Source: Parcubacteria group bacterium ADurb.Bin159 (GTDB lineage Bacteria; Patescibacteriota; Patescibacteriia; UBA2591; MWDC01). Taken from it: a stretch of 64,000 nucleotides of DNA. The stretch covers positions 67,994-131,993 of the forward strand of contig MWDC01000001.1 of assembly GCA_002070355.1 (NCBI GenBank), read 5' to 3'. Numbering within the stretch: the first letter of the stretch is position 1; each line of letters begins with the position of its first letter. Shown in pieces: positions 10,300-61,377 of the stretch. Under the pieces are notes generated by a model. It was not told the DNA's origin. It saw only the letters and a program-made list of their open reading frames with translations, and did not search any database. Made by a program: the position numbers and the translations under genes.

Positions 10300-10380
10300 T
10301 TTTCAAATTTATTTAATTTTTGTTTTTAAATCTTTTAAATATTACTTTTAACTTTTCGGCGATGGCTGTATAACTTTATA

Positions 10381-10407: not shown

Positions 10408-10429
10408 ATCTAATAATGTATAAAAAGAA

Positions 10430-10522
10430 AAATTTAGGGTCCACAACCCTAAATTTAAAAATTCGTCCTGAAAGCCAATGTTAATGCAATGTTTCTGTGG
10501 TCTCTTTCTGGGGACTGTCCCC
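10430..10522 (+). repeat. Repeat family A, copy 2. An ~90-bp extension upstream (10340-10429) is shared with copy 5.
   Basis: Near-identical to copy 3 (12098-12201). Confidence 0.75.
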
Positions 10523-12097: not shown

Positions 12098-12201
12098 AAA
12101 GATTTTAAAAATTTAGGGTCCACAACCCTAAATTTAAAAATTCGTCCTGAAAGCCAATGTTAATGCAATGTTTCTGTGGTCTCTTTCTGGGGACTGTCTC
12201 C
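12098..12201 (+). repeat. Repeat family A, copy 3
   Basis: About 90 nt identical to copy 2. Confidence 0.75.
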
Positions 12202-12225
12202 GACTCCTTATATGTCCCCGACTCC

Positions 12226-14124
12226 TTATACAACAAATTGACTATTATATAAAGAAGCATAAAAGCCATTTCTGGAAATCAGTTCTTCATGTGTCCCCTG
12301 CTCAACAATACTGCCATCACGAATTGCTAAAATTAAATCAGCATTTCGAATAGTGGAAAGCCTGTGAGCAATAATAAAACTTGTTCTACCTTTCATCATT
12401 TTATCCATTGCTGCCTGAATAATTATTTCTGTACGGGTATCAACAGAGCTTGTTGCTTCATCTAAAATTAACATTGGAGCATTAGCCAGCATTGCCCGAG
12501 CTATAGTTAAAAGTTGTTTTTCACCCTGAGAAATATTATCGGCTTCCTCGCTAATTTGCATTTGATAACCTCCTGGCAGAGTACGAATAAAATGATCGGC
12601 ATAAGCTGCCTCTGCGGCTTTAACTACTTCTTCATGAGAGACGTTTTCCTTGCTATAAGCAATATTCTCTTCAATTGTGCCATTAAATAGCCAAGTATCC
12701 TGCAATACCATACCAAAAAGTTTTCTTACATCAGACCGCTTCATTTTTCTAATATCTATCCCATCAATTTTAATAGCTTCGCTATTAACATCATAAAAAC
12801 GCATCAAGAGATTGACTATAGTTGTTTTGCCTGCTCCAGTTGGTCCTACAATAGCAACTTTTTGGCCGGGCTTAATAGTAACGTTAAAATCTTTAATAAT
12901 CATTTTCTCGGGCGTATAACCAAAAAACAAATGGATAAAATCTACTGCGCCCTTTACTTCTTTTAAAATAACAGGATTAGGAGTTTCTGGCGCTTCATCT
13001 GCTTCTTCTAAAAACTCGAATACTCTTTCTGCAGCAGCTGCTGTAGATTGAAGCACATTAGCAATGCTAGCAGTTTGGGTAATAGGGCGAGTAAATTGAG
13101 TCATATATTGTATAAAGGCCTGAATACTACCAATGCTCATCCTCCCCTGAATAGCCAACCATCCTCCCAGTACTGAAATAGCAACAAATCCACAATTCTC
13201 AATAAAATTTATTATAGGATGAAGAAGACTTGAAAAAAAGTGAGATTTCCAAGCGTTCTCATAAAGTTTATTGTTAATTCTATGAAAAATAGAGATTGAC
13301 CTCTGCTCGCCATTAAAAGCTTTCACTATTGTATGACCGGAAAACATCTCTTCAATGTGGCCATCAATTTTCCCTAATGAAACTTGGTGATTAAAAAAAT
13401 ATTTTTGCGATTTTTTAACAACAAAACTTGTTAAAAAGAAACTAAGAGGCAAAATTACGACTGCCACTAATGTTAGCTGCCAACTTATTATAACCATCAT
13501 AACAAGAATACCGATAATAGTAGTAGTGGCACTAACAATTTGAATTAAACTCTGGTTAAAGCTTTGGCTTACTGTATCTACATCGTTTGTTACACGACTC
13601 AAAATATCACCATGGCTTCCTTGGTCGAAATAACGCAATGGTAATTGATTTATTTTTTGAGAAATATTCTTTCTTAAATTAAATGCTACTTTTTGAGTAA
13701 CCCCTGCCATAATCCACCCCTGAAGATAGCTAAACAAGACGTTTAATAAATAAATTCCAATTAGTATTTCTATTAAACGAATAATTGCCGCAAAATCGAT
13801 ACCACTCCTTTGAGAAAAATTGGAACCTCCTGTCTGTATGCCCGCAACAATTTTATTAGTAATGTCCCCTAATATTTTAGGAGTAATAACGCTAAAAATA
13901 GTACTAAGTATTGCAAACACTAAAACTAAAATAATTGAAACATGGTATGGCTTTAAATATTTTATAAGTTTACGCATCGTGCCTTTAAAATCTTTGGGCT
14001 TTTCAACTGCTCCACGCATTCCTCTACCACGACCTCTGCCCATACCAAAACCACCTGGCCTTGGCCTTTTAGGAGGTAAATTAGTTGGAAAATTATTTGG
14101 TTTTGAAACAGATTCTTTAGACAT
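12226..14124 (-). CDS. ABC transporter permease/ATPase (exporter half-transporter) with an N-terminal Gly/Arg-rich tail
   Basis: Six TM helices followed by an ABC NBD (GPTGAGKTT, LSGGQ-like signature, Walker B). N-terminus is GGFGMGRGRGRGMRG. Confidence 0.8.
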   Translation of the reverse strand: MSKESVSKPNNFPTNLPPKRPRPGGFGMGRGRGRGMRGAVEKPKDFKGTMRKLIKYLKPYHVSIILVLVFAILSTIFSVITPKILGDITNKIVAGIQTGGSNFSQRSGIDFAAIIRLIEILIGIYLLNVLFSYLQGWIMAGVTQKVAFNLRKNISQKINQLPLRYFDQGSHGDILSRVTNDVDTVSQSFNQSLIQIVSATTTIIGILVMMVIISWQLTLVAVVILPLSFFLTSFVVKKSQKYFFNHQVSLGKIDGHIEEMFSGHTIVKAFNGEQRSISIFHRINNKLYENAWKSHFFSSLLHPIINFIENCGFVAISVLGGWLAIQGRMSIGSIQAFIQYMTQFTRPITQTASIANVLQSTAAAAERVFEFLEEADEAPETPNPVILKEVKGAVDFIHLFFGYTPEKMIIKDFNVTIKPGQKVAIVGPTGAGKTTIVNLLMRFYDVNSEAIKIDGIDIRKMKRSDVRKLFGMVLQDTWLFNGTIEENIAYSKENVSHEEVVKAAEAAYADHFIRTLPGGYQMQISEEADNISQGEKQLLTIARAMLANAPMLILDEATSSVDTRTEIIIQAAMDKMMKGRTSFIIAHRLSTIRNADLILAIRDGSIVEQGTHEELISRNGFYASLYNSQFVV

Positions 14125-15873: not shown

Positions 15874-16144
15874 TACAATAAATTAATCTATTAGTTTAAT
15901 AAAAATTTCTTTCTTCGTCAACAATGTTTATAGTAAAAAAATAACTCCACAAATAGTTCAGCGGTAGGCAAAAATTCGAAAAGTTATCCAAAAAGATTGC
16001 CTCGCTTCGCTTGGGCTCGGCAGAAGTAAATTCTCACCGCCTCAAATAAAACAAAAACAAAACCCTTGCCAAAATATGGTAAGGGGTCAATTTTCTCCGA
16101 ATTGTGAACAATATTAGAACAACTATTTCTTCTACTAATAATAA

Positions 16145-16237
16145 AAATTTAGGATCCACAACTCTAAATTAAAAAATTCGCCCTAAAAGCCAATGTTAAT
16201 GCGGTATTCTCGTAGTCTCTTTCTGTAAACTGTCTCC
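16145..16237 (+). repeat. Repeat family A, copy 4 (left flank of the defence island)
   Basis: aaatttaggatccacaactctaaatt...ccaatgttaatgcggtattctcgtagtctctttctgtaaactgtctcc. Confidence 0.7.
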
Positions 16238-16431: not shown

Positions 16432-17124
16432 TTATTTCTTTTGATTAGTTGTATAATCACATTTCGGGTAATTAGAGCATCCGTAAAATTCTCCAAATTT
16501 GCCAGTTTTTTTCACTAAATTTCCGCCACAGCATGGGCAAATTCGAGACGCTTCTCTTGCCTTATCTTTATCCTTTTTAGCCATTTTGATATACCGAATA
16601 AGTTTGTATCCATCTATAAGTTCAATTGGCTTATCTTCAGCAAATTTCTCAGCTTCAAGTGTAAATTTATTTGTGGTAATAAAATATGCCTTTCCATTAG
16701 CAATATGGTCAGCCAAAGCACCATAGAAATCTCTGACATCGCCAACCGTTACCTCTGAGGTTATAAACTTTTTGCATTGAATGTAGCTTTTTACTCCGTC
16801 TTTTTCAATAATAACGTCAATGCCTCCGTCGTGCGATCCGCCGACTGCTTTAGATTTGTAGCCAAGCCGCGAAAACAAATCGGCAATATAATCCTCAAAT
16901 TCCGATGGCTTCATGCCACGAAGCCATTGCAATAGATCACGATCCGAACGCCATTTTTCTCCTTTTCTGAATTTTCGGCGAATATGCCAATTATCAATTT
17001 CCAAATTAAGCCAATAAAAGAATAATTTCATAACAACAATCGCCAATAAAACTGCCCAAAGCGGCCATAGCTTCCATAAAATCGGTAGTAAATTTTTAAT
17101 TATTTCCCAGAAATTAATTTGCAT
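16432..17124 (-). CDS. Membrane-anchored Mrr-cat (PD-(D/E)XK) restriction-endonuclease-like protein with a C-terminal topoisomerase-type C4 zinc ribbon
   Basis: N-terminal TM helices, then DLFSRLGYKSKAVGGSHDGGIDVIIEKDGVKSYIQCKKF (Mrr_cat signature D..D..QCK), then CPCCGG...CSNYPKC. Confidence 0.65.
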   Translation of the reverse strand: MQINFWEIIKNLLPILWKLWPLWAVLLAIVVMKLFFYWLNLEIDNWHIRRKFRKGEKWRSDRDLLQWLRGMKPSEFEDYIADLFSRLGYKSKAVGGSHDGGIDVIIEKDGVKSYIQCKKFITSEVTVGDVRDFYGALADHIANGKAYFITTNKFTLEAEKFAEDKPIELIDGYKLIRYIKMAKKDKDKAREASRICPCCGGNLVKKTGKFGEFYGCSNYPKCDYTTNQKK

Positions 17125-21670: not shown

Positions 21671-22513
21671 TTAAATTAATTTAATAAACATTTGCTTGCG
21701 CTTAATTAAGTCTTTGAGTCGCTTTTTTGAAAGTTCAAGATATTTTTTCTCATTATCAATCCCTATAAATTTTCTATCGTATAGAATAGCAACTAAACCA
21801 GTAGTAGAGCTCCCTGCGAAAGGATCGAGTATTATGTCGCCAGGATTTGTGCTTGACAGAATAATTCTTTTCAAAAGCTCCATTGGCTTTTGTGTGGGGT
21901 GTTTACCAAATATTTTTTCTTCTGGCTTGGGAGTCCCTATTGCCCACACCGAACGCATTTGTTTATTTTGCCGATGGATAAGGTCGTTTCTAAACGCACG
22001 CATCTGCTCGTAATTGAACACGTGCTTTGCTTTCTTTTCTTTACGTGCCCACAATAATGTTTCGTGGCTGGCAGTAAAATAACGGCAACTTAAATTGGGA
22101 GAAGCATTGGGTTTATACCAGGAGATATCATTTAAGATATGATAACCGCTTAATTGAAGTGCGTAACCACATTGATAAATTGAGTGATAAGTCCCACTAA
22201 TCCAAATTGTACCGTAAGGTTTAAGAACTCGACGGCAAGCTTGAACCCAAGTAATATGAAAATCTAAATCCTTTTGAAAACCTTTGCTTTTGTCCCAATC
22301 TCCCTTATTAACACTTACACGTCTGCCAGCGTGAACGCTAAAACCACCATTAGAAAGATTATACGGTGGATCAGCAAAAATCATATCAATCGAATTGTCT
22401 GGAAGCTGTTTCAAAATCGACAGATAATCTGAACAGTATAAAACAAAATTACCTTCAGAAAAATAAGGTTTTTTCTTGATAGAAGATAGAACTTTTTGAG
22501 AATTAGTTTCCAT
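21671..22513 (-). CDS. Beta-class N6-adenine DNA methyltransferase, M.DpnA (DpnIIB)-like
   Basis: Motif IV IFADPPYNLSNGG precedes motif I DPFAGSSTTG. Strong similarity to M.DpnA through ...NLSCRYFT...KHPTQKP.... Confidence 0.8.
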   Translation of the reverse strand: METNSQKVLSSIKKKPYFSEGNFVLYCSDYLSILKQLPDNSIDMIFADPPYNLSNGGFSVHAGRRVSVNKGDWDKSKGFQKDLDFHITWVQACRRVLKPYGTIWISGTYHSIYQCGYALQLSGYHILNDISWYKPNASPNLSCRYFTASHETLLWARKEKKAKHVFNYEQMRAFRNDLIHRQNKQMRSVWAIGTPKPEEKIFGKHPTQKPMELLKRIILSSTNPGDIILDPFAGSSTTGLVAILYDRKFIGIDNEKKYLELSKKRLKDLIKRKQMFIKLI

Positions 22514-22698
22514 AAATATGTCTTTTTTTCAACTTGGATTTATTAGTTTATTTTTTCCTGTCTACTGTTTATTATAACAAATAATTCCTAAAAATATAAT
22601 TAAAGAGGCCTTAATTTTTGAAAAATTATTGAATTGTCTTACTGATTAATTTCATTTATATTGCTTTTAACTTTTCCGTGGTGGTCGTATAACTTTAT

Positions 22699-22725
22699 AT
22701 TATAGAACTTCATAAAGTTCGTCAA
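22699..22725 (-). promoter_or_regulatory. Candidate promoter of the defence operon (minus strand TTGACG-N15-TATAAT)
   Basis: Same promoter-like sequence as 10381-10407; lies in the extended copy of repeat A upstream of the MTase gene. Confidence 0.35.
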
Positions 22726-22751
22726 TATCTAATAATGCATAAAAAATAAAA

Positions 22752-22843
22752 AAATAGGGCTCACAACCCTAAATTAAAAAATTCGTCTTAACAGCCAATG
22801 TTAATGCGGTATTCTCGTAATCTCTTTTTGAGGACTGTCCCCA
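22752..22843 (+). repeat. Repeat family A, copy 5 (right flank of the defence island); the extension at 22660-22751 is shared with copy 2.
   Basis: aaatagggctcacaaccctaaatt...ccaatgttaatgcggtattctcgtaatctctttttgaggactgtcccc. Confidence 0.7.
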
Positions 22844-23785: not shown

Positions 23786-24008
23786 TTTATACGAAAACAA
23801 ATTTCTGCCAAACAATTGCTTGTGTCTAGAAAAGCAATAAAAGGGAAGTAAAATTTTTAACAATAAAAACAAAGGAGTAAACAAAATGGGCAAAAAATCT
23901 TATTGAAAAGCTTATAATGAACTTACAACAGAAAGCCGAGGAAGTGCAAAGGTCGTTTTGAATTAGCGAAAGAGGATTACTAATAAAGGGCGAAAATCTA
24001 ATGTTTAA

Positions 24009-24052
24009 AATGAAAACACCGTTTGATACGGTGTTTTAAACTTCAAAGTGTT
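24009..24052. repeat. Hairpin repeat C, copy 1
   Basis: aatgaaaacaccgtttgatacggtgttttaaacttcaaagtgtt (10-bp stem). The second copy is at 24959-25002. Confidence 0.6.
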
Positions 24053-24229
24053 CTAATTTACTCCCCATACCGGATGCATTTAAAATGGTTAACTGGGAAA
24101 AAACAAGAAAAAAATTAGGACTTTTTGAGACAGAATCTTGGACATGGGAACCAACCAAAGCTTCAAAAGAACTTATTATGTCTGGTTGTGAAGTATCTAT
24201 AAATAACCTACTACCGCTTTTGAAATATA

Positions 24230-24733: not shown

Positions 24734-24958
24734 TCTATCTTCTTATCATAGATTGTCATTAAAGAATTTTCTGCTCCGAATTGTGAACAACGTTATAAGG
24801 ATAATTCAACAGCAAGCTGAGTATATTTATATACTAGATTTAAATTCACAGGCTCAATAATATGTTATCACCTTTTACCCCACCCTGCTACTCATTATAT
24901 TATTATAACACAAAACTCCCAGAAATGGAAGTTTTGTGCCAAAGTGGCAATCTACAGA

Positions 24959-25002
24959 AATGAAAACACCGTTTGATACGGTGTTTTAAACTTCAAAGTG
25001 TT
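24959..25002. repeat. Hairpin repeat C, copy 2
   Basis: A 44-bp repeat matching 24009-24052 except for the final base; sits immediately next to the tRNA-Asn 3' end. Confidence 0.6.
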
Positions 25003-25008
25003 TAAAGT

Positions 25009-25084
25009 TGGCTCCGGGGGTGGGACTCGAACCCACGACAGGCTGCTTAACAGGCAGCTGCTCTAACCACTGAGCTACCCCGGA
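25009..25084 (-). tRNA. tRNA-Asn (GTT), CCA encoded
   Basis: Manual cloverleaf: acceptor UCCGGGG/CCCCGGA, D-arm GCUC-AGUGGUUA-GAGC, anticodon loop CU-GUU-AA, T-arm GUGGG-UUCGAGU-CCCAC, discriminator G plus CCA. Confidence 0.85.
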
Positions 25085-31863: not shown

Positions 31864-32382
31864 AGCATCCTCCTTTATTTTATTTTTTTTTTAATTTTAA
31901 AGAACATCTGTTTGAGCGTTAACGCCCAATTATAATAAAATTTTATTTTAAAAAAGAGGGTTGGATTTATGTCCCCCTCCCGCATTCTATCTCTGTAAAA
32001 CAGGCCTCTTTTTTTATTTTAATTTTAATTTAACTTTTGATTAAAGTATAAAAAAATTTCGTATTTTGTCAATAAAAAAAATTTTAATGGGGTCAGACCC
32101 CCAAAATGGATCGCTTGAAACCCTTTATTTAAGCGGGTTCCCAAGGGAAAATTTAAATTTGGCACGATTTTGATTGATTTGAAAAATGGCAAAGCATTGT
32201 GGATAACATTAGAATATACTAGATGACCACAAGAGAATTAATTGCGATGCCAATCTATGTTTAATATCCCACTACGCTACTTATAAGTCTTTAAATTTAG
32301 CTTTATTATATCAGATTTTACCCCCCTTGTCACTCACTATTATTTTAAATAATAAAACATTAATTCTTCCATAAAAGAAATG

Positions 32383-32416
32383 GCCCTCGCTCGGAATTGT
32401 ATCCAAGCGAGAGCTC
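32383..32416 (-). terminator. Terminator hairpin for the GC-rich ORF
   Basis: ctcgctcgg-N13-ccaagcgag hairpin followed, on the minus strand, by a T-rich tract. Confidence 0.45.
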
Positions 32417-32482
32417 TGGTGTTGAAAGAACGTGTTGCTTCAGCTGATGCTGAGTAAAGCAGGATTTAGTACGCCGCCGCTT

Positions 32483-33085
32483 TCATTTGGCTTCCTCTCC
32501 CTCATTCCCGATCTGGGTTTTGAGATTGTGCCAGCGACGGAGTTGCTCTCCGTGAATCCATACCTGCGAAAGGATGGACACAGCACAGCTATACACGAAT
32601 CCTGTGATGCCTTCGTTATCGGCAAGCTGAGACGCTTCTTCAGCGCATCCTTCGACCGTATCGCCGTTTGCGATCCGACCTTCCATTAAGCGAGCCCACC
32701 GCTCAGCGAAGCGAATAACTGCACTTCCGTATCCGTCGGTGTTGGCAGCCACAATTTTCTTCCAGCCTTCCTCGTCCCGAAGCGTCATCTTCTCGGGAGC
32801 AGTCATGAGAGCTCCTTCGAGTATGAGATTGTGGCGTCGCTGAGCTTCGTCAGCTTTGCGTTGCCGTTCCTTATACTCTGGAGAATTGACATACTCCTCG
32901 TGACGACGATTGGACTCAGCGCTGTAATACTTCACGATCGCATCGGCGTTATCGCCAGGGTTGGCTGTGAGTTCGATGTCATTAAACTTCGCCCTCACAA
33001 TTCCCTTCGTCTTCTTGGCCATCGCAACTATTGTGCGAGCGGTTTCGCTGATGTTTTCACCAGCAAGAGGTTTATACGTCTTCAT
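32483..33085 (-). CDS. Hypothetical 200-aa protein encoded in a GC-rich (~50%) foreign segment
   Basis: Clean ORF with a strong SD (AAAGGAGAAAT) 7 nt upstream of the ATG. Its composition differs markedly from the flanks. Confidence 0.5.
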   Translation of the reverse strand: MKTYKPLAGENISETARTIVAMAKKTKGIVRAKFNDIELTANPGDNADAIVKYYSAESNRRHEEYVNSPEYKERQRKADEAQRRHNLILEGALMTAPEKMTLRDEEGWKKIVAANTDGYGSAVIRFAERWARLMEGRIANGDTVEGCAEEASQLADNEGITGFVYSCAVSILSQVWIHGEQLRRWHNLKTQIGNEGEEAK

Positions 33086-33835
33086 TATATTTCTCCTTTC
33101 GTTTAATTTCGGTTGATAATTCGTTATTTGCGGTTCGTGGCTTACTCAGTCATAGCACCCAGAAACTTCTCACCATCGAAACCATCAAGGTGATTTGAAG
33201 TGTCCTTCCTTAATAAATAATAGCATATTCCCCCTTTCAGAAACTGCTAATTTCTTAGTAATCTCTGGAAGGGAATAAGATTAGAAGTTTAAGATATTCC
33301 AACCTCCCTTATTGCTAAATTGGATCTCCGCGAGGATGATATTTCCTCTTTTTTGGCGGTGGCGAACCGATCGCGAGAGGCTTACGCCTCGGCTAATTTC
33401 TATTTATTTCTCCTTTATATCTTTATTTTATTTATCTTAAGAACTTTCTTTGGAGAGAGTTCATAATACTGGAATTTTATGGCATTTGATCTCTCTCCGA
33501 ACCAATGCCAATTCTGTTTTCTTTACTACCATAATTATAGCATATATACATAATTTGTCAAGGGCAGAAACGGCTAAAGTAGAGGCTTACCAAACCGATA
33601 AAATCTGACAAAATAAAGAAGTAGATGAAAATTTTATGAAAAAAGCGAAAAAAACCGCACTTTTGGTTCGAATATAAAAATAATTAATAGAAAACTTCGA
33701 ATTGAACCGCCAGAATCTTTTGAAATAATCGAAGAGGGACTAAAAGCGGTTCCCGAAGAAGGGCTACGTTTGAGCCCATAAAAATGGGCATAAATAAAAG
33801 GAAAAAGAGCGGTTTCTCCCGCTCTTAATCCACGA

Positions 33836-33925
33836 TGGCGGTGGGGCAGGGATTCGAACCCTGGGTGCTCTTGCGAACACACTTGCTCTCCAAGCAAGCG
33901 CTTTCGTCCACTCAGCCACCCCACC
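33836..33925 (-). tRNA. tRNA-Ser (GGA), long variable arm, CCA encoded
   Basis: Manual fold: acceptor GGUGGGG/CCCCACC, anticodon loop UU-GGA-GA, variable arm UGUGUUCGCAAGAGCAC, T-arm CCAGG-GUUCGAAU-CCCUG, discriminator G plus CCA. Confidence 0.85.
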
Positions 33926-33927
33926 AT

Positions 33928-34896: not shown

Positions 34897-36135
34897 TTAT
34901 TTTTTTATTTTTTTTATTTGTGAATCAGCGGAACCTTTATAAAATTGCAATTTAATAAGTTGACCAACAGACAATTGCGCCGCGTCTTTAATAATCTTCT
35001 CCCCATCAAAAACAAGGCTATATCCTAAACGCAATTGTTTTTTAGGATCCTGAATTTTTATTTTTTCTTCGCAATTTTTAATTTGTTGATTAGCTGTATC
35101 TATAGCCATAGTAAATTTTTCTTTTAGTGTCTTTGTTGATTTGGCTAAATTCTCTTTTTGATTATTTATGGTTTGCCCAATAATGGAAAAAATTCTTTTA
35201 AACCCTTCTATTAATAAGGGGAATTTGTGATAAATGGATGAAAACTGGTTTTTTATCTCTTCGGAATTTTGAGTCAATTTTGATTCTTGATAAAAAAGCA
35301 ATTCTTCAAATGAATTTAATAATTTTGCTTGTAAATTATAAATATATTGTTTCGTTTCTCGCCAAGAATGTGAAATAAATTGGGCAGCAGCAGTAGGAGT
35401 GGAAACAGATTTATCAGCGGCTAACGTGGCTAGAGGGATATCTCTTTCATGCCCAATGCCGCATAAAACAGGGATTTTCGAACCGGCAATAGCTCTAACA
35501 ACAGCTTCATTATTAAATGCCTGTAAACTTTCCCAACTCCCCCCTCCTCTAATGACAACTAAAACCTCACAATCTGATTTTTTATTAAACCAATCAATAG
35601 CTTTAATTAAATCCGGCACTGCTTCTTGTCCTTCTACTCGTGAATCAAAAAATTTTATTTTAAAACCGATATTTTCCAAATTAGCATTAAAATCATGAAT
35701 AGCTTCTCCGTAACGAGAACTAATTAAACCTATTTTAGTGGGAAAAACAGGAATCTTCTTTTTTCTTTCTGGGGCAAATAATCCCTCTTTCTCTAATTTT
35801 TTCTTTAAAAACTCATAGGCTTTTTGTAAAACCCCCTCTCCCACCAATTCTACTGATTCTACTTTTATAGACAATCTACCTATTGGCTTCCAAATATTTG
35901 GCTCTCCTCCAATAATAACTTCCATTCCTTCCTGAAATTCAATGCCCATCATCTTATAAACTGAACGAAAAATTAAGCAATTTAAAACAGCCGGCTCTCC
36001 ATCAGAATCTTTTAAATCAAAATAAATTGTTTTTTCTCTTTTTTCAATCCTGCTTATTTCGCCCTTAATTTTCGCTTTTTCTCCTTCTAAAACAATATTT
36101 AATTTGTCTAAATAATTACTAACGCTATAAACCAT
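34897..36135 (-). CDS. xseA: Exodeoxyribonuclease VII large subunit
   Basis: N-terminal OB fold (KIKGEISRIEKREKTIYFDLKD) and a catalytic core (VIRGGGSWESLQAFN). Confidence 0.8.
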   Translation of the reverse strand: MVYSVSNYLDKLNIVLEGEKAKIKGEISRIEKREKTIYFDLKDSDGEPAVLNCLIFRSVYKMMGIEFQEGMEVIIGGEPNIWKPIGRLSIKVESVELVGEGVLQKAYEFLKKKLEKEGLFAPERKKKIPVFPTKIGLISSRYGEAIHDFNANLENIGFKIKFFDSRVEGQEAVPDLIKAIDWFNKKSDCEVLVVIRGGGSWESLQAFNNEAVVRAIAGSKIPVLCGIGHERDIPLATLAADKSVSTPTAAAQFISHSWRETKQYIYNLQAKLLNSFEELLFYQESKLTQNSEEIKNQFSSIYHKFPLLIEGFKRIFSIIGQTINNQKENLAKSTKTLKEKFTMAIDTANQQIKNCEEKIKIQDPKKQLRLGYSLVFDGEKIIKDAAQLSVGQLIKLQFYKGSADSQIKKIKK

Positions 36136-36142: not shown

Positions 36143-36212
36143 GAGGGGACTGTCCCCTTTTTTAACCATATTTTAAGGGGGGACTTATTTTAAGGGGGGA
36201 CTGTCCCCTTTT
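36143..36212. repeat. Cluster of three GGGGACTGTCCCC palindromes with local tandem duplication
   Basis: Copies at 36145-36157, 36177-36190 (degenerate) and 36196-36208, each followed by a T-run. Confidence 0.6.
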
Positions 36213-36343
36213 TTAGGCTCTCTACAAGTCTTTATTTATGCGGCTTTCCGAGCAAATTTTTCTGTTTTGACATTTTTTTTACCTATTTTTGAAATTAAAA
36301 AATGAAAGCCAAAAAAATTTTTTATAAAAGAAAAAATAATTTT

Positions 36344-36435
36344 GGTAAAAAAAGTGTCAAATTTGATTTTTTGAGGAGATAACCCTTTATTGATGCGGGT
36401 TTGCGAAGGTCGGAAAAAGGGGACTGTCCCCTTTT
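36344..36435 (+). repeat. Repeat family B, copy 1
   Basis: ggtaaaaaaagtgtcaaatttgattttttgaggagataaccctttattgatgcgggtttgcgaaggtcggaaaaaggggactgtcccctttt. Near-identical copy at 45021-45112. Confidence 0.7.
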
Positions 36436-37747
36436 AGAGAGTGAGATCTTGCTCTTCACCGCGACGCAAAATTGTTAAATGGATTGCCTCCCCTTTTGAT
36501 TTTTGAGAAACAAGATAAGTTAAATTATTTTTTTTATTTATATTTTGCCCATCAAATTTTATGATTACATCGGCATTGCGAATTCCCGCTTTATAAGCGG
36601 CTAATCCCGGCGTAGGATTACCATAAACAATAGCTCCTTCTTTAAGATCGTGGAAAAGAGCGCTGGAAAGACCCGGCGCTTCTTCAATTAAAAGATAGTC
36701 AATTCCCAAAGAGGGATAAAAAATTTCTTTGTTTTCTTTTAGATAAGAAATAGCTTTTAGAAATTGCCAAGAGGGAATATATTTTTTATTATCTGAACTC
36801 GATGAACCAACTAATTGTCCTTTTAAATTAAAAATAAAACTTCCTCCTAGAGTATTCGGCGAGATATTATTTAAGAGAAGTGATTCGGAAAAATAATCTG
36901 TAGAACGAACCAAATCTTCAGTTTTAGTAATGTCTCGCCAATCTGACCGAACGATTGCAGAAACATACCATCTTAAAAATTTATCTGCCACTAATACCGT
37001 TTGCCCTTGATTGATTGAAGAAAACGGAGCTAATTCTAAAAATGGCAAATCATTGCCATTAATTTTAATAAAAGTTAATCCTGTCCGTTTATCTCTTATA
37101 ACTTTATCTAAATCGTAGATTTCTCCCCCATTTATTATAACTTCCCATTTTTTATTTTCTGTTTCTTCTACAGCATTTTCTTCTATGTCTATTTCTTCAA
37201 AAGGATAAGGGGTTAAAATCCACCCATCAGAACTAATAATTAACCCCATTGATTTTATTTGCCAAGGAGCGTAAATTTGGTCTAAAAAAGAAGGATTATC
37301 TTTTAATTCTTTTTTAGGGAAAATGCTTACTAAACTTTTTTCAATGTCTCCCGTCAATTCATTTATTCTTATATCACTACTCACGGTAATATTTTTTTCT
37401 GTAATTTCAGTAACATGTTTTTCTGGAAAATATTTAGTTAAATTAAATTCTTTCCCCCAGGGAAAAACAATTTTGTCACGGGAAAAAATAAACATCGAAC
37501 CTAACGCTCCAGCAATAAAACCAATAATTAAGGTTAAAATAATTAAGCCAAAAATAGACCTACCCCCTAAAGAAGCGGGTTTCTCTAAATGGTCAAATGG
37601 CTTATGATAAAAACGCCCCACATCTTCCCTGATTTCTTCTTTATTTCTTTGAGGAACTCTTTCTTTTTTGATTTTAATTGATGACGATTTATCAACAATA
37701 CCATCGTTTACTGTTATTTTTTGATGACTTGATTTTTCTCTACTCAT
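36434..37747 (-). CDS. Trypsin-like (HtrA/S1C-like) domain protein with a C-terminal PDZ domain, possibly catalytically divergent
   Basis: N-terminal TM, a GGSFIF (GxSGG-like) segment and a PDZ-like C-terminus. No obvious catalytic His. Confidence 0.45.
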   Translation of the reverse strand: MSREKSSHQKITVNDGIVDKSSSIKIKKERVPQRNKEEIREDVGRFYHKPFDHLEKPASLGGRSIFGLIILTLIIGFIAGALGSMFIFSRDKIVFPWGKEFNLTKYFPEKHVTEITEKNITVSSDIRINELTGDIEKSLVSIFPKKELKDNPSFLDQIYAPWQIKSMGLIISSDGWILTPYPFEEIDIEENAVEETENKKWEVIINGGEIYDLDKVIRDKRTGLTFIKINGNDLPFLELAPFSSINQGQTVLVADKFLRWYVSAIVRSDWRDITKTEDLVRSTDYFSESLLLNNISPNTLGGSFIFNLKGQLVGSSSSDNKKYIPSWQFLKAISYLKENKEIFYPSLGIDYLLIEEAPGLSSALFHDLKEGAIVYGNPTPGLAAYKAGIRNADVIIKFDGQNINKKNNLTYLVSQKSKGEAIHLTILRRGEEQDLTL

Positions 37748-40919: not shown

Positions 40920-43910
40920 TCAAGCTTTTTCCCGATAGGGGCAAATATGGTTATAATCGCAAAATTGACATTGATAACCGGGGGTAGCGGAAAAATCGCT
41001 TTTTAAAAGCTCTTTTATTCGACCAATAATCTTTTCTTTAAAGGGGTTAATTTCTTCTTCTTTTATTTCAAAAGAAACCTTTTCTCCTCCATCTAAATAA
41101 TAACAGGTTAATTTTTTAATTGGTTTAAAATGGGAAAGTGGAGAAGAAAGGGCTAAATAATAAATTAACAATTGTTCTTTTACTGAAGTCAAATTGGATT
41201 CTTTTCTCTTACTTGTCTTGTAATCGATAATTTCAAAACCATCTTTTATTTTATCAATTCGGTCAATTCGCCCCTTAAAAATAAATTCTTCTAAGGGAAA
41301 GGTAAATGTCTGCTCAACAGCCATAATCTCTGAAGGATTTTTAGCAAAATCTTTATAAAATTTAGATAAAATTTCTTTACCTTTTTCTCTATAAGCTTCT
41401 TTTTGCTCTGGTGAATCATACCATTCGTCAACCCATGATTCTTTGTAAAAACGAAATAAATCTTCTAATTTAATGGGCATTTTCTTTTCTTTCTTATTCT
41501 GAGGGAAAAGAGAAGATTGCTTTTCAAAAGAACGCAAATATAAATTGCCAAATTTTGCCAAAGTGTCGTGAATACTTCGCCCAAAACTATAATTAGGCCT
41601 GCCAGCAGTGGGAATAGTTAAAATATATTTATATTTATATTGGAGCGGGCAAAAATCAAAATCTGCAAGTTGCGTAAAGCTAATTTTTTTATTTAGGAAT
41701 AAATTTTGATTTTTCTGTTTTTTAACTGGAAATATGTTAACTGAACTAGGAATAATTATTTTGGGGGATTCTTTTTTTAATGATGTTTTTTCTTTTGTTT
41801 CTAATCCTAATTCGTAAAGAAAGCGAGACGGTTTTTTTAAACTCTTCGTCCCATAATCTTCAGCCCAGCAAAGAAATAAACCATCTTTAGCCCGCGTTAA
41901 AGCAACATAAAAAAGCCGTCTTTCTTCTTCTAAATGAGTATCCCCTTCCGGAACAATTCCTTTAATTAAAGCATCAGGCAAAGGAATAATATCGCCTCTT
42001 TCTGGAGTAGGGAACCTACGGTCAACAAGGTCAACAATAAAAACATATTTAAACTCTAAACCCTTTGCCCCGTGAACAGTTAAAAGTTTTACTGATTCTG
42101 GACCCTCTATCTCTGTGCTTATTGCTCCAAAATCTCCCGCTTGCTCAATTTGGTTTATAGATTCAATAAAACTTTTAATAGTGCAATCGGGATTTTCTTT
42201 CTCAAATTGCATCACTCTTCTTAAAAATTGATTAGCATAATTTATATCTTCTTGAGCGCGAATATTTCCTCCGTCTGATTCTTTCGTTAAAAAAGAGGCA
42301 TATCCGCTCTCCTTCAAAAATTGATAAATAATTTTGCTTACCGGCTCCCGGCGAGATTGAGTAGAATGTTTTTCTATCCAAGATAAAAATTTATTAATTG
42401 CCAATAATCCCTTTTGGGAGATAGCACCCAGAGAAGCAGCTTGAGTTAAAGTTTGATAAAACGACCAAGCTCTTTTGCGGGATTCATGAGTCAAAAGAAC
42501 TAAATCGTCATTAGTCAAAGCGTCTTTAAATATTGGAGAAATTAAAAGCCGATAAACACTGGAAGATTCGTGATAATCATCTAAAAGTTTTAAATAAGAC
42601 AATATATCTAAAATTATTGATTTGGAAAAAAGGCCACTATGAGCCAAAAATTGATAAGGGATAGAGGCGTATTCCAATGTTTTGGAAAACGGCTCTAAAG
42701 ATTTATTAGCTCTAGCTAAAATGGCGAAATCGTTCCAAGTCAAACTTTTATCTTTATTTTTGATTTCAGCTATTTTTTTTACTATTGTTTCAACTTCTTC
42801 TTCGTGAGTATTGGCTTTAATCACTTCAATTATCCCCTCACCTGTCCTAACTGACCTTAAATGTTTAGAAATAATTTTTTCCAAAGAAGATCCGTTTTTC
42901 ATTTTTGGAATTTGTACTTCTAAACGATTGGGATTATTCTGCTTTATAAATTTATAAGAAAGGTCTAAAATATTTTGGTAAGAACGATAATTTTTAGTTA
43001 AAGCGACAATTTTTGCCGTGGGATAATCTTCGCTAAATTGAAAAACGTTATTATAAGAAGCTCCTCTCCATAAAAAAACTGCTTGATCATCGTCAGCTAC
43101 CACCGTTAAATTGTTTTTTGGCTTAGCTAATATTTTTAGAAGTTCATATTGAGCTAAATTAGTATCCTGAAATTCGTCTACCAAAATATATTTAAATTGA
43201 TTTTGATATTTTTTTAAAATAGCCGGTCTCTCTTTAAATAATTTAATGGTGTAGTTGATTAAATCACCAAAATCTAACGCCCCCTCTTCTTCAAGAAGCT
43301 TTTGATAAATATTATAAGCGCCTGCCACTTCTTTTAATTTTCTTATTTCATCATTGACCAATTCGTCACTTAAGGCGGAATCTTTATTAAGCTCTAAATT
43401 TTTAACATAATCCAAATATTCTTCCGGCGAAACCAATTCGTCTTTTGCACGAGAAAAATGTTTCACCAAAGAACCAATAAATCTAAAAGGATTGCCCAAA
43501 GGGCGATAATAGTCAAGATTAAATCGAGAAAAATTACGGCGGATAAAAAGGGATTGTCCCGCTTCATCTAAAAGTTTAAAATCAGTAGATAACCCTATAT
43601 CTAAAGCGTTTTCTCTTAATACCCTTTCACAAAAAGAATGAAAAGTGGAAACCCAAAGGTCTAAATAACCATAAGGGAGAAGTTGATCAACTCTTCCCTC
43701 CATTTCTCTGGCAGCTTTTTCGGTAAAAGTTACCGCCAAAATTTCATCTGGCTTAACTTTTTTCTCTAAAATTAACCATACCAAACGACGAGTAATAACC
43801 GTTGTCTTCCCTGTACCAGCTCCGGCAATAATTAAAAATGGTCCATCGCCATAAGTAACCGCTTCTTTTTGTTCAGGATTTAAATTGGCTAAAATTTTAT
43901 CATTGTTCAT
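40920..43910 (-). CDS. UvrD/PcrA-like helicase fused to a C-terminal RecB-family PD-(D/E)XK nuclease domain with a Cys cluster (AddA/AddB-like)
   Basis: N-terminal AGAGTGKTT (Walker A) and UvrD motifs. C-terminus has CPLQY...GYQCQFCDYNHICPY. Confidence 0.7.
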   Translation of the reverse strand: MNNDKILANLNPEQKEAVTYGDGPFLIIAGAGTGKTTVITRRLVWLILEKKVKPDEILAVTFTEKAAREMEGRVDQLLPYGYLDLWVSTFHSFCERVLRENALDIGLSTDFKLLDEAGQSLFIRRNFSRFNLDYYRPLGNPFRFIGSLVKHFSRAKDELVSPEEYLDYVKNLELNKDSALSDELVNDEIRKLKEVAGAYNIYQKLLEEEGALDFGDLINYTIKLFKERPAILKKYQNQFKYILVDEFQDTNLAQYELLKILAKPKNNLTVVADDDQAVFLWRGASYNNVFQFSEDYPTAKIVALTKNYRSYQNILDLSYKFIKQNNPNRLEVQIPKMKNGSSLEKIISKHLRSVRTGEGIIEVIKANTHEEEVETIVKKIAEIKNKDKSLTWNDFAILARANKSLEPFSKTLEYASIPYQFLAHSGLFSKSIILDILSYLKLLDDYHESSSVYRLLISPIFKDALTNDDLVLLTHESRKRAWSFYQTLTQAASLGAISQKGLLAINKFLSWIEKHSTQSRREPVSKIIYQFLKESGYASFLTKESDGGNIRAQEDINYANQFLRRVMQFEKENPDCTIKSFIESINQIEQAGDFGAISTEIEGPESVKLLTVHGAKGLEFKYVFIVDLVDRRFPTPERGDIIPLPDALIKGIVPEGDTHLEEERRLFYVALTRAKDGLFLCWAEDYGTKSLKKPSRFLYELGLETKEKTSLKKESPKIIIPSSVNIFPVKKQKNQNLFLNKKISFTQLADFDFCPLQYKYKYILTIPTAGRPNYSFGRSIHDTLAKFGNLYLRSFEKQSSLFPQNKKEKKMPIKLEDLFRFYKESWVDEWYDSPEQKEAYREKGKEILSKFYKDFAKNPSEIMAVEQTFTFPLEEFIFKGRIDRIDKIKDGFEIIDYKTSKRKESNLTSVKEQLLIYYLALSSPLSHFKPIKKLTCYYLDGGEKVSFEIKEEEINPFKEKIIGRIKELLKSDFSATPGYQCQFCDYNHICPYREKA

Positions 43911-45016
43911 ATACTCTTTCTAATTTTTTTGAATAAATCAAAATAAAAATGAAGATTATGTAAAACCGCCAATCTCTGACCAAGTGGATCGGAAATTCTA
44001 AAAAGATGATGTAAATAAGAACGGGAATAATTTTGGCAAGTTGGACAAAGACAATTTTTATCTATTGGCTTTTGGTCAAATTTAAAAATAGAATTTTTAA
44101 TGGATATGGTTTGATAAAAATTGCTTTCTAATAATTTTTTCAAAGAAAATTTCTCTTTTGAATTTTTGAAAACATAAAAAAATCCATGCCTGCCATTTCT
44201 TGTGGGAAGGACACAGTCAAAAATATCGAATCCCCGAGATATAGCCCAAACTAATTGTGAAGGATTACCTAACCCCATTAAATAATGAGGTGCTGTTTCC
44301 GGTAAAATAGATAAAATAGGAGGAAGAACTTTTTTCATTTCTAATGGCGACATCATCCCCCCAATAGCATAACCGTCAAAACCAATATCCACTATACTTT
44401 GAGCGCTAATTTTACGCAAATCAGAATAAGCACCCCCCTGAATAATTCCAAATAAAAGAGAACGCCTTTCTTTTTTCTCCTCTTTCCTAAATGCCTTTTT
44501 AGCCCGAATAGCCCAATCGGTTGTCCTTATCACTGCTCTCTTAGTAGACAAGTAATCCGATGCATAGGGAGTACATTCATCTAAAACCATTATAATATCT
44601 GAACCGATATTTTTTTGAAATTCAACAATGTTTTCCGGGGTTAAAAAAATTTCTTGGCCACTATTTATATCGCGAAATTTTACCCCTTCTTTACTAATCT
44701 GTCTCCATTTACTTAAAGAAAAAACCTGATATCCTCCACTATCAGTTAAAATCGCTCTTGGCCAATTCATAAAATTATGAAGGCCTTTTGCTTTTTTTAA
44801 AACCTTAATTCCGGGAGACAAAAACAAATGATAAGCATTAGCTAAAATTATTTGCGCTCCGGAATTTTTTAATTCTTTATTAGTTAAAAGCTTAACTGCT
44901 CCTCGGCTGCCAATAGGCATAAAATTTGGCGTGTCAACTGCTCCGTGAAGAGTAGAAATTTTTCCTAAACGAGCTAAACTATTTTTGGATTTTTTAATAA
45001 TTTTGAAATAATTCAT
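43907..45016 (-). CDS. tgt: Queuine tRNA-ribosyltransferase. Probable true start is the ATG at 45016; the track used TTG at 45037, which lies inside repeat B.
   Basis: TPNFMPIGSRGAVK, LGLGNP and the zinc site CLCPTCQNYSRSYLHHL. Confidence 0.8.
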   Translation of the reverse strand: MNYFKIIKKSKNSLARLGKISTLHGAVDTPNFMPIGSRGAVKLLTNKELKNSGAQIILANAYHLFLSPGIKVLKKAKGLHNFMNWPRAILTDSGGYQVFSLSKWRQISKEGVKFRDINSGQEIFLTPENIVEFQKNIGSDIIMVLDECTPYASDYLSTKRAVIRTTDWAIRAKKAFRKEEKKERRSLLFGIIQGGAYSDLRKISAQSIVDIGFDGYAIGGMMSPLEMKKVLPPILSILPETAPHYLMGLGNPSQLVWAISRGFDIFDCVLPTRNGRHGFFYVFKNSKEKFSLKKLLESNFYQTISIKNSIFKFDQKPIDKNCLCPTCQNYSRSYLHHLFRISDPLGQRLAVLHNLHFYFDLFKKIRKSI

Positions 45017-45020
45017 TTTT

Positions 45021-45112
45021 GGTAAAAAAAGTGTCAAATTTGATTTTTTGGCGAGATAACCCTTTATTGATGCGGATTTGCCGAGGTCGGAAAAAGGGGA
45101 CTGTCCCCTTTT
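45021..45112 (+). repeat. Repeat family B, copy 2
   Basis: Near-identical to 36344-36435. Overlaps the annotated tgt start and the murG C-terminus. Confidence 0.7.
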
Positions 45113-46077
45113 AGGAGATGGCGAATTTCTTTTAAAAGATTTTCTTTGGTTTGCTCTTCTCTAAAAAGAGCGCGAACAGCTTTTTTTTCTAAAAAATAAT
45201 AAGCATTGGCTTCTTGATGAGTGTGGGGAATAGGCAAAACAATGGCCGGCTTGCCTAAAAAAGATAATTCAGATAAAGTGCCCATACCAGCGCGGCAAAT
45301 AACTATATCTGCCACCTTATAAGCCAAAGACATTTCTTTGTCTAAAAATTCAAATTGATGATAATTTTCATTTTGAAAAACTCGAGATTTTCCTTTGCCG
45401 GTTAAATGAATAATTTGAGAAAAAGAAGTAAGTTCAGGCAATAAATCAAAAATTAACTGGTTAATAAAAGCAGCGCCTTTCCCTCCCCCTAAAACTAAAA
45501 TAACTGGCAAATTTGGCTTTAAGGAAAAAAATTTTTTTGCTTCTTCTTCCGACGCGTTTAATAACTCTTGCCTTACCGGATTACCCGTCAAAATAGTTTT
45601 TTTAGCCGGAAAATCTTTTAACGAAGGAGGCAAACTTACGGTAATTTTATAAGCGAAAGGAGTAAGAAGGCGGTTAGTCAAACTGGGAATTATATCTTGC
45701 TGATGAATAAAAAGAGGAACCCTTAAAAACCAAGCAGCTATCCCCACAGGCACAGAAGTGAAACTACCTGCTGATAAAACCATATCTGGCTTAAAATTTT
45801 TAATTATTTTTAAGGATTGAAAAAAACCAAAAATAGTTAAAAATGGGGAGATTAAATTTTTAAGAGAAAAATAGCGGCGCCATTTTCCAGCATAAATACT
45901 TTGATAAGAAATACCCTCTTTTCTAACTAATTCTTCTGCCACATCATCATTTTTAGGCCCAATAAAAAGAAACTCTGTTTCAGGTTCTTTCTTTTTAATT
46001 TCCGATCGCATAGCTAAAAGTGGAGTTATAGAACCGCCTGTACCTCCGCCAACTAATAAAATTTTTCTCATAATCAA
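45064..46077 (-). CDS. murG: Undecaprenyldiphospho-muramoylpentapeptide beta-N-acetylglucosaminyltransferase
   Basis: LLVGGGTGGSITPLLAM (G-loop) and C-terminal GT28 motifs. The last ~15 codons read through the repeat-B palindrome. Confidence 0.8.
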   Translation of the reverse strand: MIMRKILLVGGGTGGSITPLLAMRSEIKKKEPETEFLFIGPKNDDVAEELVRKEGISYQSIYAGKWRRYFSLKNLISPFLTIFGFFQSLKIIKNFKPDMVLSAGSFTSVPVGIAAWFLRVPLFIHQQDIIPSLTNRLLTPFAYKITVSLPPSLKDFPAKKTILTGNPVRQELLNASEEEAKKFFSLKPNLPVILVLGGGKGAAFINQLIFDLLPELTSFSQIIHLTGKGKSRVFQNENYHQFEFLDKEMSLAYKVADIVICRAGMGTLSELSFLGKPAIVLPIPHTHQEANAYYFLEKKAVRALFREEQTKENLLKEIRHLLKGDSPLFPTSANPHQ

Positions 46078-60645: not shown

Positions 60646-61377
60646 ATGAATCTTCTAAAATTGTTGATTATACTTTGGTTAATCGAAATAATCCTGTTAA
60701 TAGTAGCTATTTTGATTTATGAATTAATTCGTTGGTATAAAAGATCTAGATTGAAAAAAATGCTTCTCAAAATTCTCAATGGGGAAATTCTTCTGAAATA
60801 CGCTAAAAAAATGAATTTTTATTGGCGTCGAACCCTTCAATTAAAAAAATTGAAAAAAATGCTTCTCGAAATTCCCGGCGGGGAGATTATTCTGAAATAC
60901 GCCAATACATTAAAGATAAAAATGGAAATAAATAATGAGAATGAGAAGATATGGGAAATTGGAATAAAAAGAAAAGTTGTTTTTGCTCCTCTTAAAGCAG
61001 TAGAAAAAAATAAGAGGAGTGACGTAAATAATCCCTTATTTGGTTTGGTCCATGAAATAGGTCATCTGGAATACTCTTTTTTTCCTATTGATATTGCCAA
61101 TCCGTTTATTTGTCCTAAGTTTCAAGGAAAATGTATTATCGAGGAGTGGGAAGCATGGCTGCGGGGATGGAATATAATCCGCCGCCTGCAAATTCCCGCT
61201 GAACCTAAAAAATATTGGAGGTACGTTGTAAAACAATTAAGTAGCTATTATCAAGATAAGACGCTTCTTGATTGTTTTGAATTCTGCATATTAACAAAAA
61301 ATTATGCTCAAACAATGATTTCTATGGGGGTTCATCCACCGGTGATTCATCCGTCAAATAAAAATATTAACAATTAA
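60646..61377 (+). CDS. Hypothetical protein with an N-terminal TM, an internal ~27-aa tandem repeat and an HExxH motif (VHEIGH)
   Basis: ORF-track protein with repeat units KKMLLKILNGEILLKYAKK and KKMLLEIPGGEIILKYANT. Confidence 0.4.
   Translation: MNLLKLLIILWLIEIILLIVAILIYELIRWYKRSRLKKMLLKILNGEILLKYAKKMNFYWRRTLQLKKLKKMLLEIPGGEIILKYANTLKIKMEINNENEKIWEIGIKRKVVFAPLKAVEKNKRSDVNNPLFGLVHEIGHLEYSFFPIDIANPFICPKFQGKCIIEEWEAWLRGWNIIRRLQIPAEPKKYWRYVVKQLSSYYQDKTLLDCFEFCILTKNYAQTMISMGVHPPVIHPSNKNINN

Follow-up and report, generated by a model that had tools for sequence, protein, structure and literature searches.

Among described bacterial repeats, two groups are among the closest to the sequences considered here. 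One consists of the repetitive extragenic palindromes (REPs) and bacterial interspersed mosaic elements (BIMEs) of enterobacteria and pseudomonads, including the RIP/RIB class that binds integration host factor (IHF); the other consists of regulatory miniature inverted repeat transposable elements (MITEs), e.g. Correia/NEMIS of Neisseria, ERIC, RUP and BOX. Here we analyse a 64,000 nucleotide (nt) stretch of Parcubacteria group bacterium ADurb.Bin159 (contig MWDC01000001.1, positions 67,994 to 131,993), hereafter the window, and in it the junction between a PDZ-domain protein gene and xseA. This junction carries copies of a G+C-rich palindrome and a repeat termed B1. On balance, it probably belongs to a family of modular cassettes, comparable to REP/BIME or regulatory MITE elements, that are gained, lost and rearranged in the spaces between genes. 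As far as seen, the family is confined to one clade of the Patescibacteria, or candidate phyla radiation (CPR).

With REPs and BIMEs the cassettes share short G+C-rich extragenic palindromes at gene 3' ends, a mosaic structure with conserved non-palindromic motifs, occurrence as single copies or inverted pairs, and differences between strains. They also share a capacity, here a predicted one, to act as terminators or mRNA 3' stabilizers. The non-palindromic central motif between two inverted palindromes is comparable to the REP-IHF site-REP arrangement. REPs, however, are imperfect palindromes of 20-40 nt, whereas the present one is a perfect 13-mer; in place of a 5' tetranucleotide GTAG or similar, it is flanked by A/T runs or unrelated sequence. 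The REP-associated transposase RAYT (a Y1 HUH enzyme) was not found among 25 of 55 Pfam families for window open reading frames (ORFs); all counts for the window cover 64 kb of the source genome. Unlike REPs and BIMEs, the unit includes a putative sigma70-type promoter or a second terminator hairpin, its palindrome lies 1-2 nt past a stop codon, its core is common to mobile elements of other phyla, and its host is a Patescibacteria genome.

Like the regulatory MITEs, the cassettes are dispersed intergenic elements of 100-300 nt that are able to bring promoters and terminators and to extend or truncate neighbouring ORFs, and they have roughly inverted composite ends and a modular build (compare boxA-boxB-boxC). 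They differ in that no target-site duplication (TA in Correia) is seen. The ends do not look like true terminal inverted repeats: in B1 and its partner C1 the outer ~20 nt and the promoter boxes are inverted, and the cores are direct. A parent insertion sequence (IS) with the same ends was not found in the window, 25 CPR loci or viral contigs, a limited search space.

The window has a G+C content of 33%, and nearly all its genes lie on the minus strand. L-numbers (L001 etc.) denote loci or contigs from other assemblies compared with it. The junction contains the following features:

34897-36135: xseA, named in the first-pass annotation and confirmed by Pfam
36145-36195: 51-nt partial tandem duplication; it comprises one complete palindrome (36145-36157), half of another (36177-36184) and repeats of the xseA leader and first codons (cttaaaatATGgtt)
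36196-36283, plus strand: element C1, inverted partner of B1; palindrome, linker, core (reverse orientation), TTGACA-T8-ACC
36196-36208: outer-end palindrome of C1
36229-36249, minus strand: C1 core, reading GGAAAGCCGCATAAATAAAGA on this strand and oriented like the B1 core
36284-36339: A/T-rich spacer of ~56 nt between the inner ends of C1 and B1, absent in L001, L002, L142-L145 and L148
36333-36360, minus strand: predicted sigma70-like promoter of B1; TTGACA (36360-36355), 16-nt spacer, TATTTT (36338-36333)
36340-36437, minus strand: repeat B1; palindrome, linker, core, A/T-rich stretch, TTGACAC-T7-ACCAAAA
36384-36404, minus strand: B1 core of 21 nt (GCAAACCCGCATCAATAAAGG on the minus strand)
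36419-36431: palindrome GGGGACTGTCCCC at the outer end of B1, beginning 2 nt after the TAA of the PDZ gene, flanked by A4 and T5
36158-36431: 274-nt block bounded by palindromes; contains B1 and C1, head to head across the spacer, together with partial duplications of 51 nt
36434-37747: PDZ-domain protein gene, confirmed by Pfam, with its TAA stop at 36434-36436

Read in the gene direction, the PDZ-gene TAA and two A's are followed by a palindrome, the B1 body with its putative promoter, the spacer, the C1 body (in opposite orientation, its core pointing the same way as that of B1), a second palindrome, the 51-nt duplications and the tcttaaaatATG of xseA. The duplications read ccttaaaataa-GTCCCC-ccttaaaatatggtt-aaaaaa-palindrome and repeat the xseA leader and first two codons; their endpoints coincide with the palindrome centre. 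The first-pass annotation had described three tandem palindromes at 36145-36208. Two of these are complete, but the third is a truncated half-copy, GGGGGGAC (36177-36184). The fourth copy, which it placed inside B1 at 36419-36431, is an exact match.

Proteins identical to those of the window are found by exact-protein look-ups in metagenomes of anaerobic digesters and similar habitats, and the closest named relatives, for the repeats and for MurG alike, are metagenome-assembled genomes of Patescibacteria. Among assemblies that encode a 100% identical XseA, the junction has four alleles. The empty allele has a 24-nt spacer with a single palindrome and is present in seven contigs from different samples (L001, L002, L142, L143, L144, L145 and L148). 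The 298-nt form of the window recurs in L139, L140 and L141. A 'clean' allele, L147, has the composite without the 51-nt duplications. In the fourth, L146, the window-form block is joined upstream to murB, a further palindrome and a truncated B; the region concerned is 1452-1905 of ERZ27249273 k141_138329, where the window has the PDZ gene, and the truncated B body has hairpin ttgccgtaaataacggca. L146 arose by recombination between copies of the element, or else it was mis-joined in assembly. Filled and empty alleles differ by exactly 274 nt, with a palindrome on both sides. Since several samples and assemblers have yielded these alleles, we regard the polymorphism as real and recent.

A second copy of the repeat has left a different trace at the murG-tgt junction:

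43907-45016: tgt, confirmed by Pfam
45017-45114, minus strand: repeat B2, which fills the entire murG-tgt junction; its inner end abuts the tgt ATG (45016)
45064-46071: murG, confirmed by Pfam

B1 and B2 are 95% identical over 98 nt (36340-36437 and 45017-45114), so the repeat pair reported in the first-pass annotation is real, with an identity higher than the 92% given there; near-identical B1-like copies are present in other Patescibacteria contigs. The B2 palindrome (45096-45108) and core (45061-45081) encode a foreign tail of MurG. The protein ends in ...EIRHLLK-GDSPLFPTSANPHQ, where 14 residues (45064-45105) are encoded by B2 and the stop lies at 45064. Ten MurG homologues (50-69% identity) have ~35 more conserved C-terminal residues, which are missing here. 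In a relative with 68% identity (L179-L181) the murG stop overlaps the tgt start (ATGA), leaving zero intergenic DNA and no element, and in one with 69% identity (L182) palindrome, linker and core follow a full-length murG. The homologue tails and the junctions of the relatives thus indicate that B2 took the place of ~105 nt of coding sequence and broke up a murG/tgt pair that had been coupled in translation. The -10 box of the predicted B2 promoter would fall inside the first tgt codons; B2 looks unlike a regulatory region that evolved for tgt. It had been thought that B2 overlaps both neighbours. This holds for the 3' end of murG, whose ORF reads through the palindrome, but tgt is merely abutted unless an upstream in-frame TTG (45037) is taken as its start.

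The earlier suggestion of a shared motif spreading between intergenic regions is borne out by the presence or absence of the 274-nt block, by the replaced end of murG, and by the occurrence of the same modules in other Patescibacteria contigs and other gene contexts. The first-pass annotation missed the modular build, the inverted partner C1, the putative promoter inside B and the presence of the core far outside the source genome.

How unusual is the palindrome? Its general form, GGGGACWGTCCCC, has nine matches in the window, six exact and three with one mismatch, where 0.01 are expected, and none of 100 shuffled windows reaches nine. It is also the commonest odd 13-nt palindrome of the window; the sole other G+C-rich one is a variant, GGGGTCAGACCCC, at 32089. 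The matches are as follows:

36145-36157, 36196-36208, 36419-36431 and 45096-45108: exact, GGGGACTGTCCCC
3741-3753 (centre A) and 10510-10522: further exact copies
6296, 12189 and 22830: copies with one mismatch

All nine lie outside genes or at gene ends. In 13 of 16 scorable copies that are read palindrome first, the palindrome starts 1-9 nt, mostly 1-2 nt, past the stop of a co-oriented upstream ORF, and L099 has four B copies in 6.3 kb, one per gene end. Occurrence above chance level, at issue in the first-pass annotation, is thereby upheld for the window. Two versions of the palindrome exist, GGGGACAGTCCCC (30 distinct copies) and GGGGTCTGACCCC (12), which differ by a compensated A:T to T:A swap. 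The symmetry retained in GGGGTCTGACCCC is compatible with a hairpin or with a dimeric protein site, and recognition by a protein is plausible.

Contig ends frequently coincide with these repeats, and L146 could be a k-mer mis-join. Could chance or assembly artefact then account for the family? This is hardly credible, given the 0.01 palindrome matches expected, the identical alleles recovered from independent samples and assemblers, and the viral contigs, in which the core has 20 matches and each of three composition-matched shuffles of it has none.

Repeat B and the five copies of a repeat A that lie, like B, in the gene direction can be aligned from the palindrome through the core. The shared layout consists of the 13-bp G+C palindrome, a linker of 19-20 nt that contains CGACC, the 21-nt core GCAAAnCCGCATnAATAAAGG (diverged in some A copies) and a third module. 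The spacing from palindrome to core is invariant in ~45 copies over 25 loci. In type B the third module is AAATTTGACAC-T7-ACC (TTGACAC-T7-ACC), with a sigma70-like -35 box followed in most copies, as read from the sequences, by TATTTT, TAAAAT or TG-n-TAAAAA 16-17 nt further on. In type A it is a hairpin, H (TTTAGGGTTGTGGACCCTAAA plus T5), which folds as a 12-bp stem. Type C has the palindrome and linker on the opposite side of the core, and when read palindrome first it carries TTGGCAC/TTGACA-17-(-10). The window has two type C copies, C1 (36196-36283) and C2 (32089-32175); C1 has TTGACA at 36267-36272 and a weak -10, TGAAAT, at 36290-36295, and is homologous to C2 and to the C-type elements of L013, L042, L047, L063 and L127. 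The other copies in the window are:

6214-6308, minus strand: repeat A1; its palindrome has one mismatch and is followed by linker, core and terminator hairpin H
10428-10522, minus strand: repeat A2; H is a 12-bp stem followed by U5
12107-12201, minus strand: repeat A3; an 18-nt tandem duplication, TATAAGGAGTCGGGGACA twice, just upstream (~12202-12231) ends at the palindrome centre
16143-16237, minus strand: repeat A4; degenerate palindrome, with a half-palindrome duplication, gcattcGGGGAC gcatttGGAGAC, upstream
22748-22842, minus strand: repeat A5
3741-3835, plus strand: repeat A6, the sole plus-strand A copy, upstream of gltX
32089-32175, plus strand: element C2; compensated palindrome GGGGTCAGACCCC, linker, core, TTTGGCAC-17-AAAAAT

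The modules are thus arranged as palindrome-linker-core-promoter (B), palindrome-linker-core-H (A) or core-linker-palindrome (C). The composite of B, spacer and C found in the window recurs in other gene contexts in L013/L063, L042 and L047. The earlier remark made the palindrome the 3' hairpin of repeat A; it forms the end of five minus-strand A copies, and a sixth, inverted copy is found at 3741-3835. Fuller forms of A occur in L152 (683-953, palindrome-core-H...H-core-palindrome) and on the reverse strand of L048 (~2640-2760, palindrome-core-H-core-palindrome), and the A copies of the window therefore look like left halves. The longest ORF of gltX (2140-3867) over-extends; its likely start is an ATG near 3688 (MVTRIAPSPTGFMHIG...), which places A6 in the upstream region and not in coding sequence.

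The surroundings of these copies have further features. A 94-nt repeat (10339-10432 and 22658-22751, 86% identical) lies directly downstream, in the gene direction, of A2 and A5; with TTGACG...TATAAT-like boxes, it looks like a promoter region shared by a 381-residue ORF and an N6/N4 DNA methylase gene. Also encoded in the left part of the window, where A repeats are frequent, are a restriction endonuclease of the Mrr type, which has a Top1 zinc ribbon, and an N6_N4 methyltransferase (16432-17124, 21671-22513); another window ORF matches the DpnII endonuclease family. Next to A2/A3 is a glycosyltransferase, for which a protein look-up gave no record. C2 is located in 600 nt of non-coding sequence (31864-32482), in which each strand has strong promoter-like sites and a terminator hairpin of 13 bp is present. 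The ndk-mlaE region to which it belongs (31864-32482, 32483-33927) varies among strains with identical XseA (L139/L141 vs L140/L142/L143): some have, as in the window, a 97-residue ORF and a gene for a Tad4-like protein (anti-Thoeris domain), others a 72-residue gene instead. Two repeats of other kinds are present. A 52-nt sequence in two copies (24008-24059 and 24958-25009, 94% identical), with another terminator-like hairpin, AAAACACCGTTTGATACGGTGTTTT, flanks a small ORF and adjoins a tRNA gene (25012-25084), and a tandem 99-nt repeat (60750-60914; 66 nt aligned, 82% identical) is inside a plus-strand ORF (60646-61377).

What might the modules do? The palindromes of B1 and B2, flanked by A4-5 and T4-5, fold on both strands into 9-bp hairpins of about -12 kcal/mol (for B1, -11.7 on the minus strand, AAAAGGGGACAGUCCCCUUUUU, and -12.2 on the plus strand). 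On either strand there is an A-tract, then a 5-bp G+C stem that A:U pairs lengthen, with a loop of 3 nt, and finally a U-tract. In this they resemble bidirectional intrinsic terminators, and they look like members of that class. The first-pass annotation read the palindrome as a terminator in either direction; this agrees with B1 and B2. At 36145 and 36196 a U-tract follows the stem on the plus strand only, and the palindromes of repeat A (6296, 10510, 12189, 22830, 3741) have it on neither strand (...GGGGACAGUCCCCAGAAAG, ...GGGGACUGUCCCCAAAUAG); in A the terminator-like part is likely to be hairpin H rather than the palindrome. A consensus terminator scan of the window did not include the element hairpins among its listed results. 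Unlike ordinary intrinsic terminators, the same 13-mer is reused at many sites at a fixed distance from a conserved core, rearrangements break at its centre, and A and C-type copies are without U-tracts (except the C1 palindrome at 36196, on the plus strand). Since the A palindromes lack U-tracts, the palindrome would be conserved for more than termination; it could in addition serve as a hairpin at RNA 3' ends, as the site of a dimeric protein or, in DNA, as a hairpin at which breakage is favoured.

With B palindromes that resemble canonical bidirectional terminators, a good -35/-10 pair in B and positions exactly at gene boundaries, are the elements simply ordinary terminators and promoters, immobile and kept similar by selection or gene conversion? 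Strain differences would then be slippage deletions between palindromes, and such a deletion would yield precisely the empty allele. We consider this unlikely. B2 truncates murG by ~35 codons, in a position where the two genes of a relative overlap without any intergenic DNA, and its predicted promoter is so placed that it could not express tgt; the palindromes of repeat A have no U-tract; A6 is inverted relative to all neighbouring genes; and copies remain 85-95% identical between contigs whose flanking genes are unrelated.

The favoured reading, that of mobile modular cassettes, assigns a role to either end of the unit. Placed immediately behind the upstream stop, the palindrome would with its A/T tracts act as a transcript-end hairpin, i.e. 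a terminator or 3'-end stabilizer, and B would then restart transcription for the next gene via its outward-reading promoter. An end hairpin combined with a promoter restart suggests that the units may work as compact, portable boundaries of transcription units. In the B1/C1 composite, the putative -35 boxes face each other (36355-36360 on the minus strand, 36267-36272 on the plus strand), with bidirectional hairpins at the outer ends. Could the composite instead encode small RNAs, either overlapping antisense transcripts from convergent promoters, each ending at the palindrome of the other, or, from the plus strand of B, a terminator-ended small RNA? The architecture is kept in L013, L042 and L047, but the spacer is not conserved (~56 nt in the window vs ~110 nt in L013) and solitary B and A copies have no partner promoter. 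Fold z-scores are modest (-0.9 to -2.4), no Rfam family matches, the N6 base of a putative core hairpin and the base after GG do not covary by our own tabulation, and the ATG of the core opens no conserved ORF. A small RNA origin is therefore very unlikely.

Several rearrangements end at the palindrome, often at its exact centre. Half-palindrome duplications that stop there (GGGGACA/GTCCCC) are found at 36145-36195, upstream of A3, upstream of A4, and in L012, L013 and L117. This suggests that the hairpin may be a site of DNA cutting, stalling or template switching. Candidate agents of spread are a hairpin-recognizing HUH/RAYT-like enzyme, a site-specific recombinase, or replication slippage together with gene conversion. 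The cassettes resemble the IS200/IS605-derived palindrome-associated transposable elements (PATEs) and other hairpin-targeting HUH systems in having hairpins at their ends without strict terminal inverted repeats or target duplication, and in that the inserted block lies directly 3' of ...GTCCCC, which is also carried at the far end of the block. Unlike those systems, no TnpA or RAYT (among 25 of 55 Pfam families for window ORFs) and no defined tetra- or pentanucleotide target were found, and in solitary B and A units only one of the ends has a hairpin.

Several observations weigh against mobile cassettes. The empty allele is equally explicable as a deletion between two directly repeated palindromes, and polymorphism alone is no proof of insertion. 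Reading of the flanks of ~25 B copies revealed neither a target-site duplication nor a consistent flanking sequence, and both junctions of filled and empty alleles show the palindrome alone. No transposase or integrase family is among 25 of 55 Pfam families matched by window ORFs, and the pattern of palindrome plus core has no match in viral contigs. The orientation of the core to neighbouring genes is constant in the window except for A6, which would not be predicted for a purely selfish element. The predicted promoter of B2 could not serve tgt, so a cassette is not always functional as a promoter, and terminator and promoter activities in general are predicted from sequence only.

The core has a wider distribution than the cassettes. 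GCAAAnCCGCATnAATAAAGG is found at no fewer than 119 loci in metagenome contigs, and clustering of the flanks gives at least 52 core families that are not of the CPR palindrome type and range from 25 to 68% G+C. A weak flank consensus is aaa-n-CCC before the core and n-TTT after it. The core lies downstream of, or beside, genes for tyrosine integrases, for a large serine recombinase, for a DUF927/Cch helicase and for initiators of the Rep3 and Rep_trans types; where it stands immediately 3' of initiator or helicase genes, it has direct and inverted iterons around it. In IS1634-like DDE elements the core lies 30-60 nt inside the ends, in opposite orientations in two related IS families (L019 vs L120), and at prophage ends it directly follows tRNA or tmRNA terminators. 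Often a pair of direct repeats precedes it at 6-13 nt and inverted copies follow it (e.g. L162, L165, L174, L086, L093). Outside CPR, there is no orientation bias to its neighbours (upstream 21 to 16, downstream 19 to 15) and no consistent second palindrome next to it. One soil contig (L054, 63% G+C, ~1277) has core, linker and a degenerate palindrome (CCAGGGCAATCCTCAAAGCCGCCTC...) resembling a degenerate A-type copy of the CPR contig L048; the palindrome and core unit may thus extend beyond Patescibacteria.

A BLAST search of the consensus hairpin against plasmids, phages and E. coli genomes returned mostly generic terminators with GCCCGC stems; the E. coli genomes lack the motif. The exceptions are the region upstream of parA in MOBP plasmids of ~33-43 kb and the int-proximal end of Streptococcus phage PH15, where the arrangement of int stop, two repeats and motif is similar and the motif has diverged. 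The plasmids come from Pseudomonas, Aeromonas and Enterobacter. In them a sequence close to the core, AAAAACCCGCCGAAACCCGCATAAATAAAGGGTTTT (NZ_MF344579.1 31339-31372; L134 2501-2534), is located in the divergent region that separates a DotA/TraY gene from the parA operator/promoter, and thus cannot be a terminator there. Rfam 15, at gathering and E<=5 thresholds, gave no match at the elements in the window and 33 loci, only tRNA, tmRNA and pemK elsewhere. A full-text literature search for the core and its sub-strings yielded chance primer matches only, and one on CPR repeats or MITEs nothing relevant. Two candidates for core function were discarded. A small ORF from the core ATG (MRVC...) varies from 4 to 143 codons, a chance-like spread, with no conserved peptide, and an RNA hairpin AAACCC/GGGTTT is unsupported, as a comparison of families shows no covariation of the variable base before CC with the one after GG.

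The core has only partial resemblance to known sites. With dif, only CGCATAA resembles the XerC arm, and the N in CATnAAT is variable; comparison with sigma54 promoters, DnaA boxes, Tn3-family inverted repeats and matS, and likewise with the origin of ColE2, the nick site of M13 and the T1 region of rrnB, gave nothing convincing. The contexts of the core are the usual places of sites for architectural host factors, origin centres or attP arms.

Could palindrome and core then be binding or recombination sites that stem from the origin or attachment module of a mobile element? Composites would form by site-specific recombination at the palindrome, as in cassettes or Xer-type modules, and a dimer bound to the palindrome might act together with an architectural protein of the host at the core. 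Direct iterons on one side and inverted ones on the other do flank the core in other phyla, or else it is placed between arm-type repeats and an element end, beside Rep3, Rep_trans, DUF927/Cch, integrase and transposase genes. Its orientation is free outside CPR, being flipped between the L019 and L120 IS1634-like ends, and is flipped also between B and C. The palindrome variants are symmetric, and identical palindromes border the inserted block on both sides, as they would if a circle had integrated. Yet single elements such as B2 have one palindrome only, no recombinase gene was seen near the elements, and the core, compared by eye, does not fit the E. coli IHF consensus WATCAANNNNTTR or an 11-6-11 dif with a conserved XerD arm. 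As to integron gene cassettes, the R''/R' sites of attC (RYYYAAC / GTTRRRY) are absent, and instead of cassettes there are housekeeping genes between the elements, whose neighbours are xseA, tgt, murG and secA. An origin from recombination sites of this sort is quite unlikely.

As a tentative proposal, which we hold with much reserve, the core could be an undescribed cis element of mobile DNA shared across phyla, and the palindrome and core cassettes of Patescibacteria its chromosomal, multiplied derivative. If so, its distribution would point to a conserved host factor, or to a replication or recombination step, that reads it. A core common to Rep, integrase and transposase modules is a testable lead to a shared host-dependent step at origins, attachment sites and IS ends.

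For the organisms themselves, the significance of the cassettes would lie in the architecture of the genome. Patescibacteria have tiny, tightly packed genomes in which the starting and stopping of transcription and the rearrangement of the genome are barely known. A reusable cassette located 1-2 nt past stop codons, with a hairpin and in many cases a putative promoter, and able to truncate genes such as murG, to split overlapping pairs and to differ between otherwise identical strains, would explain how gene boundaries are built and reshuffled there, and also why assemblies break at these points.

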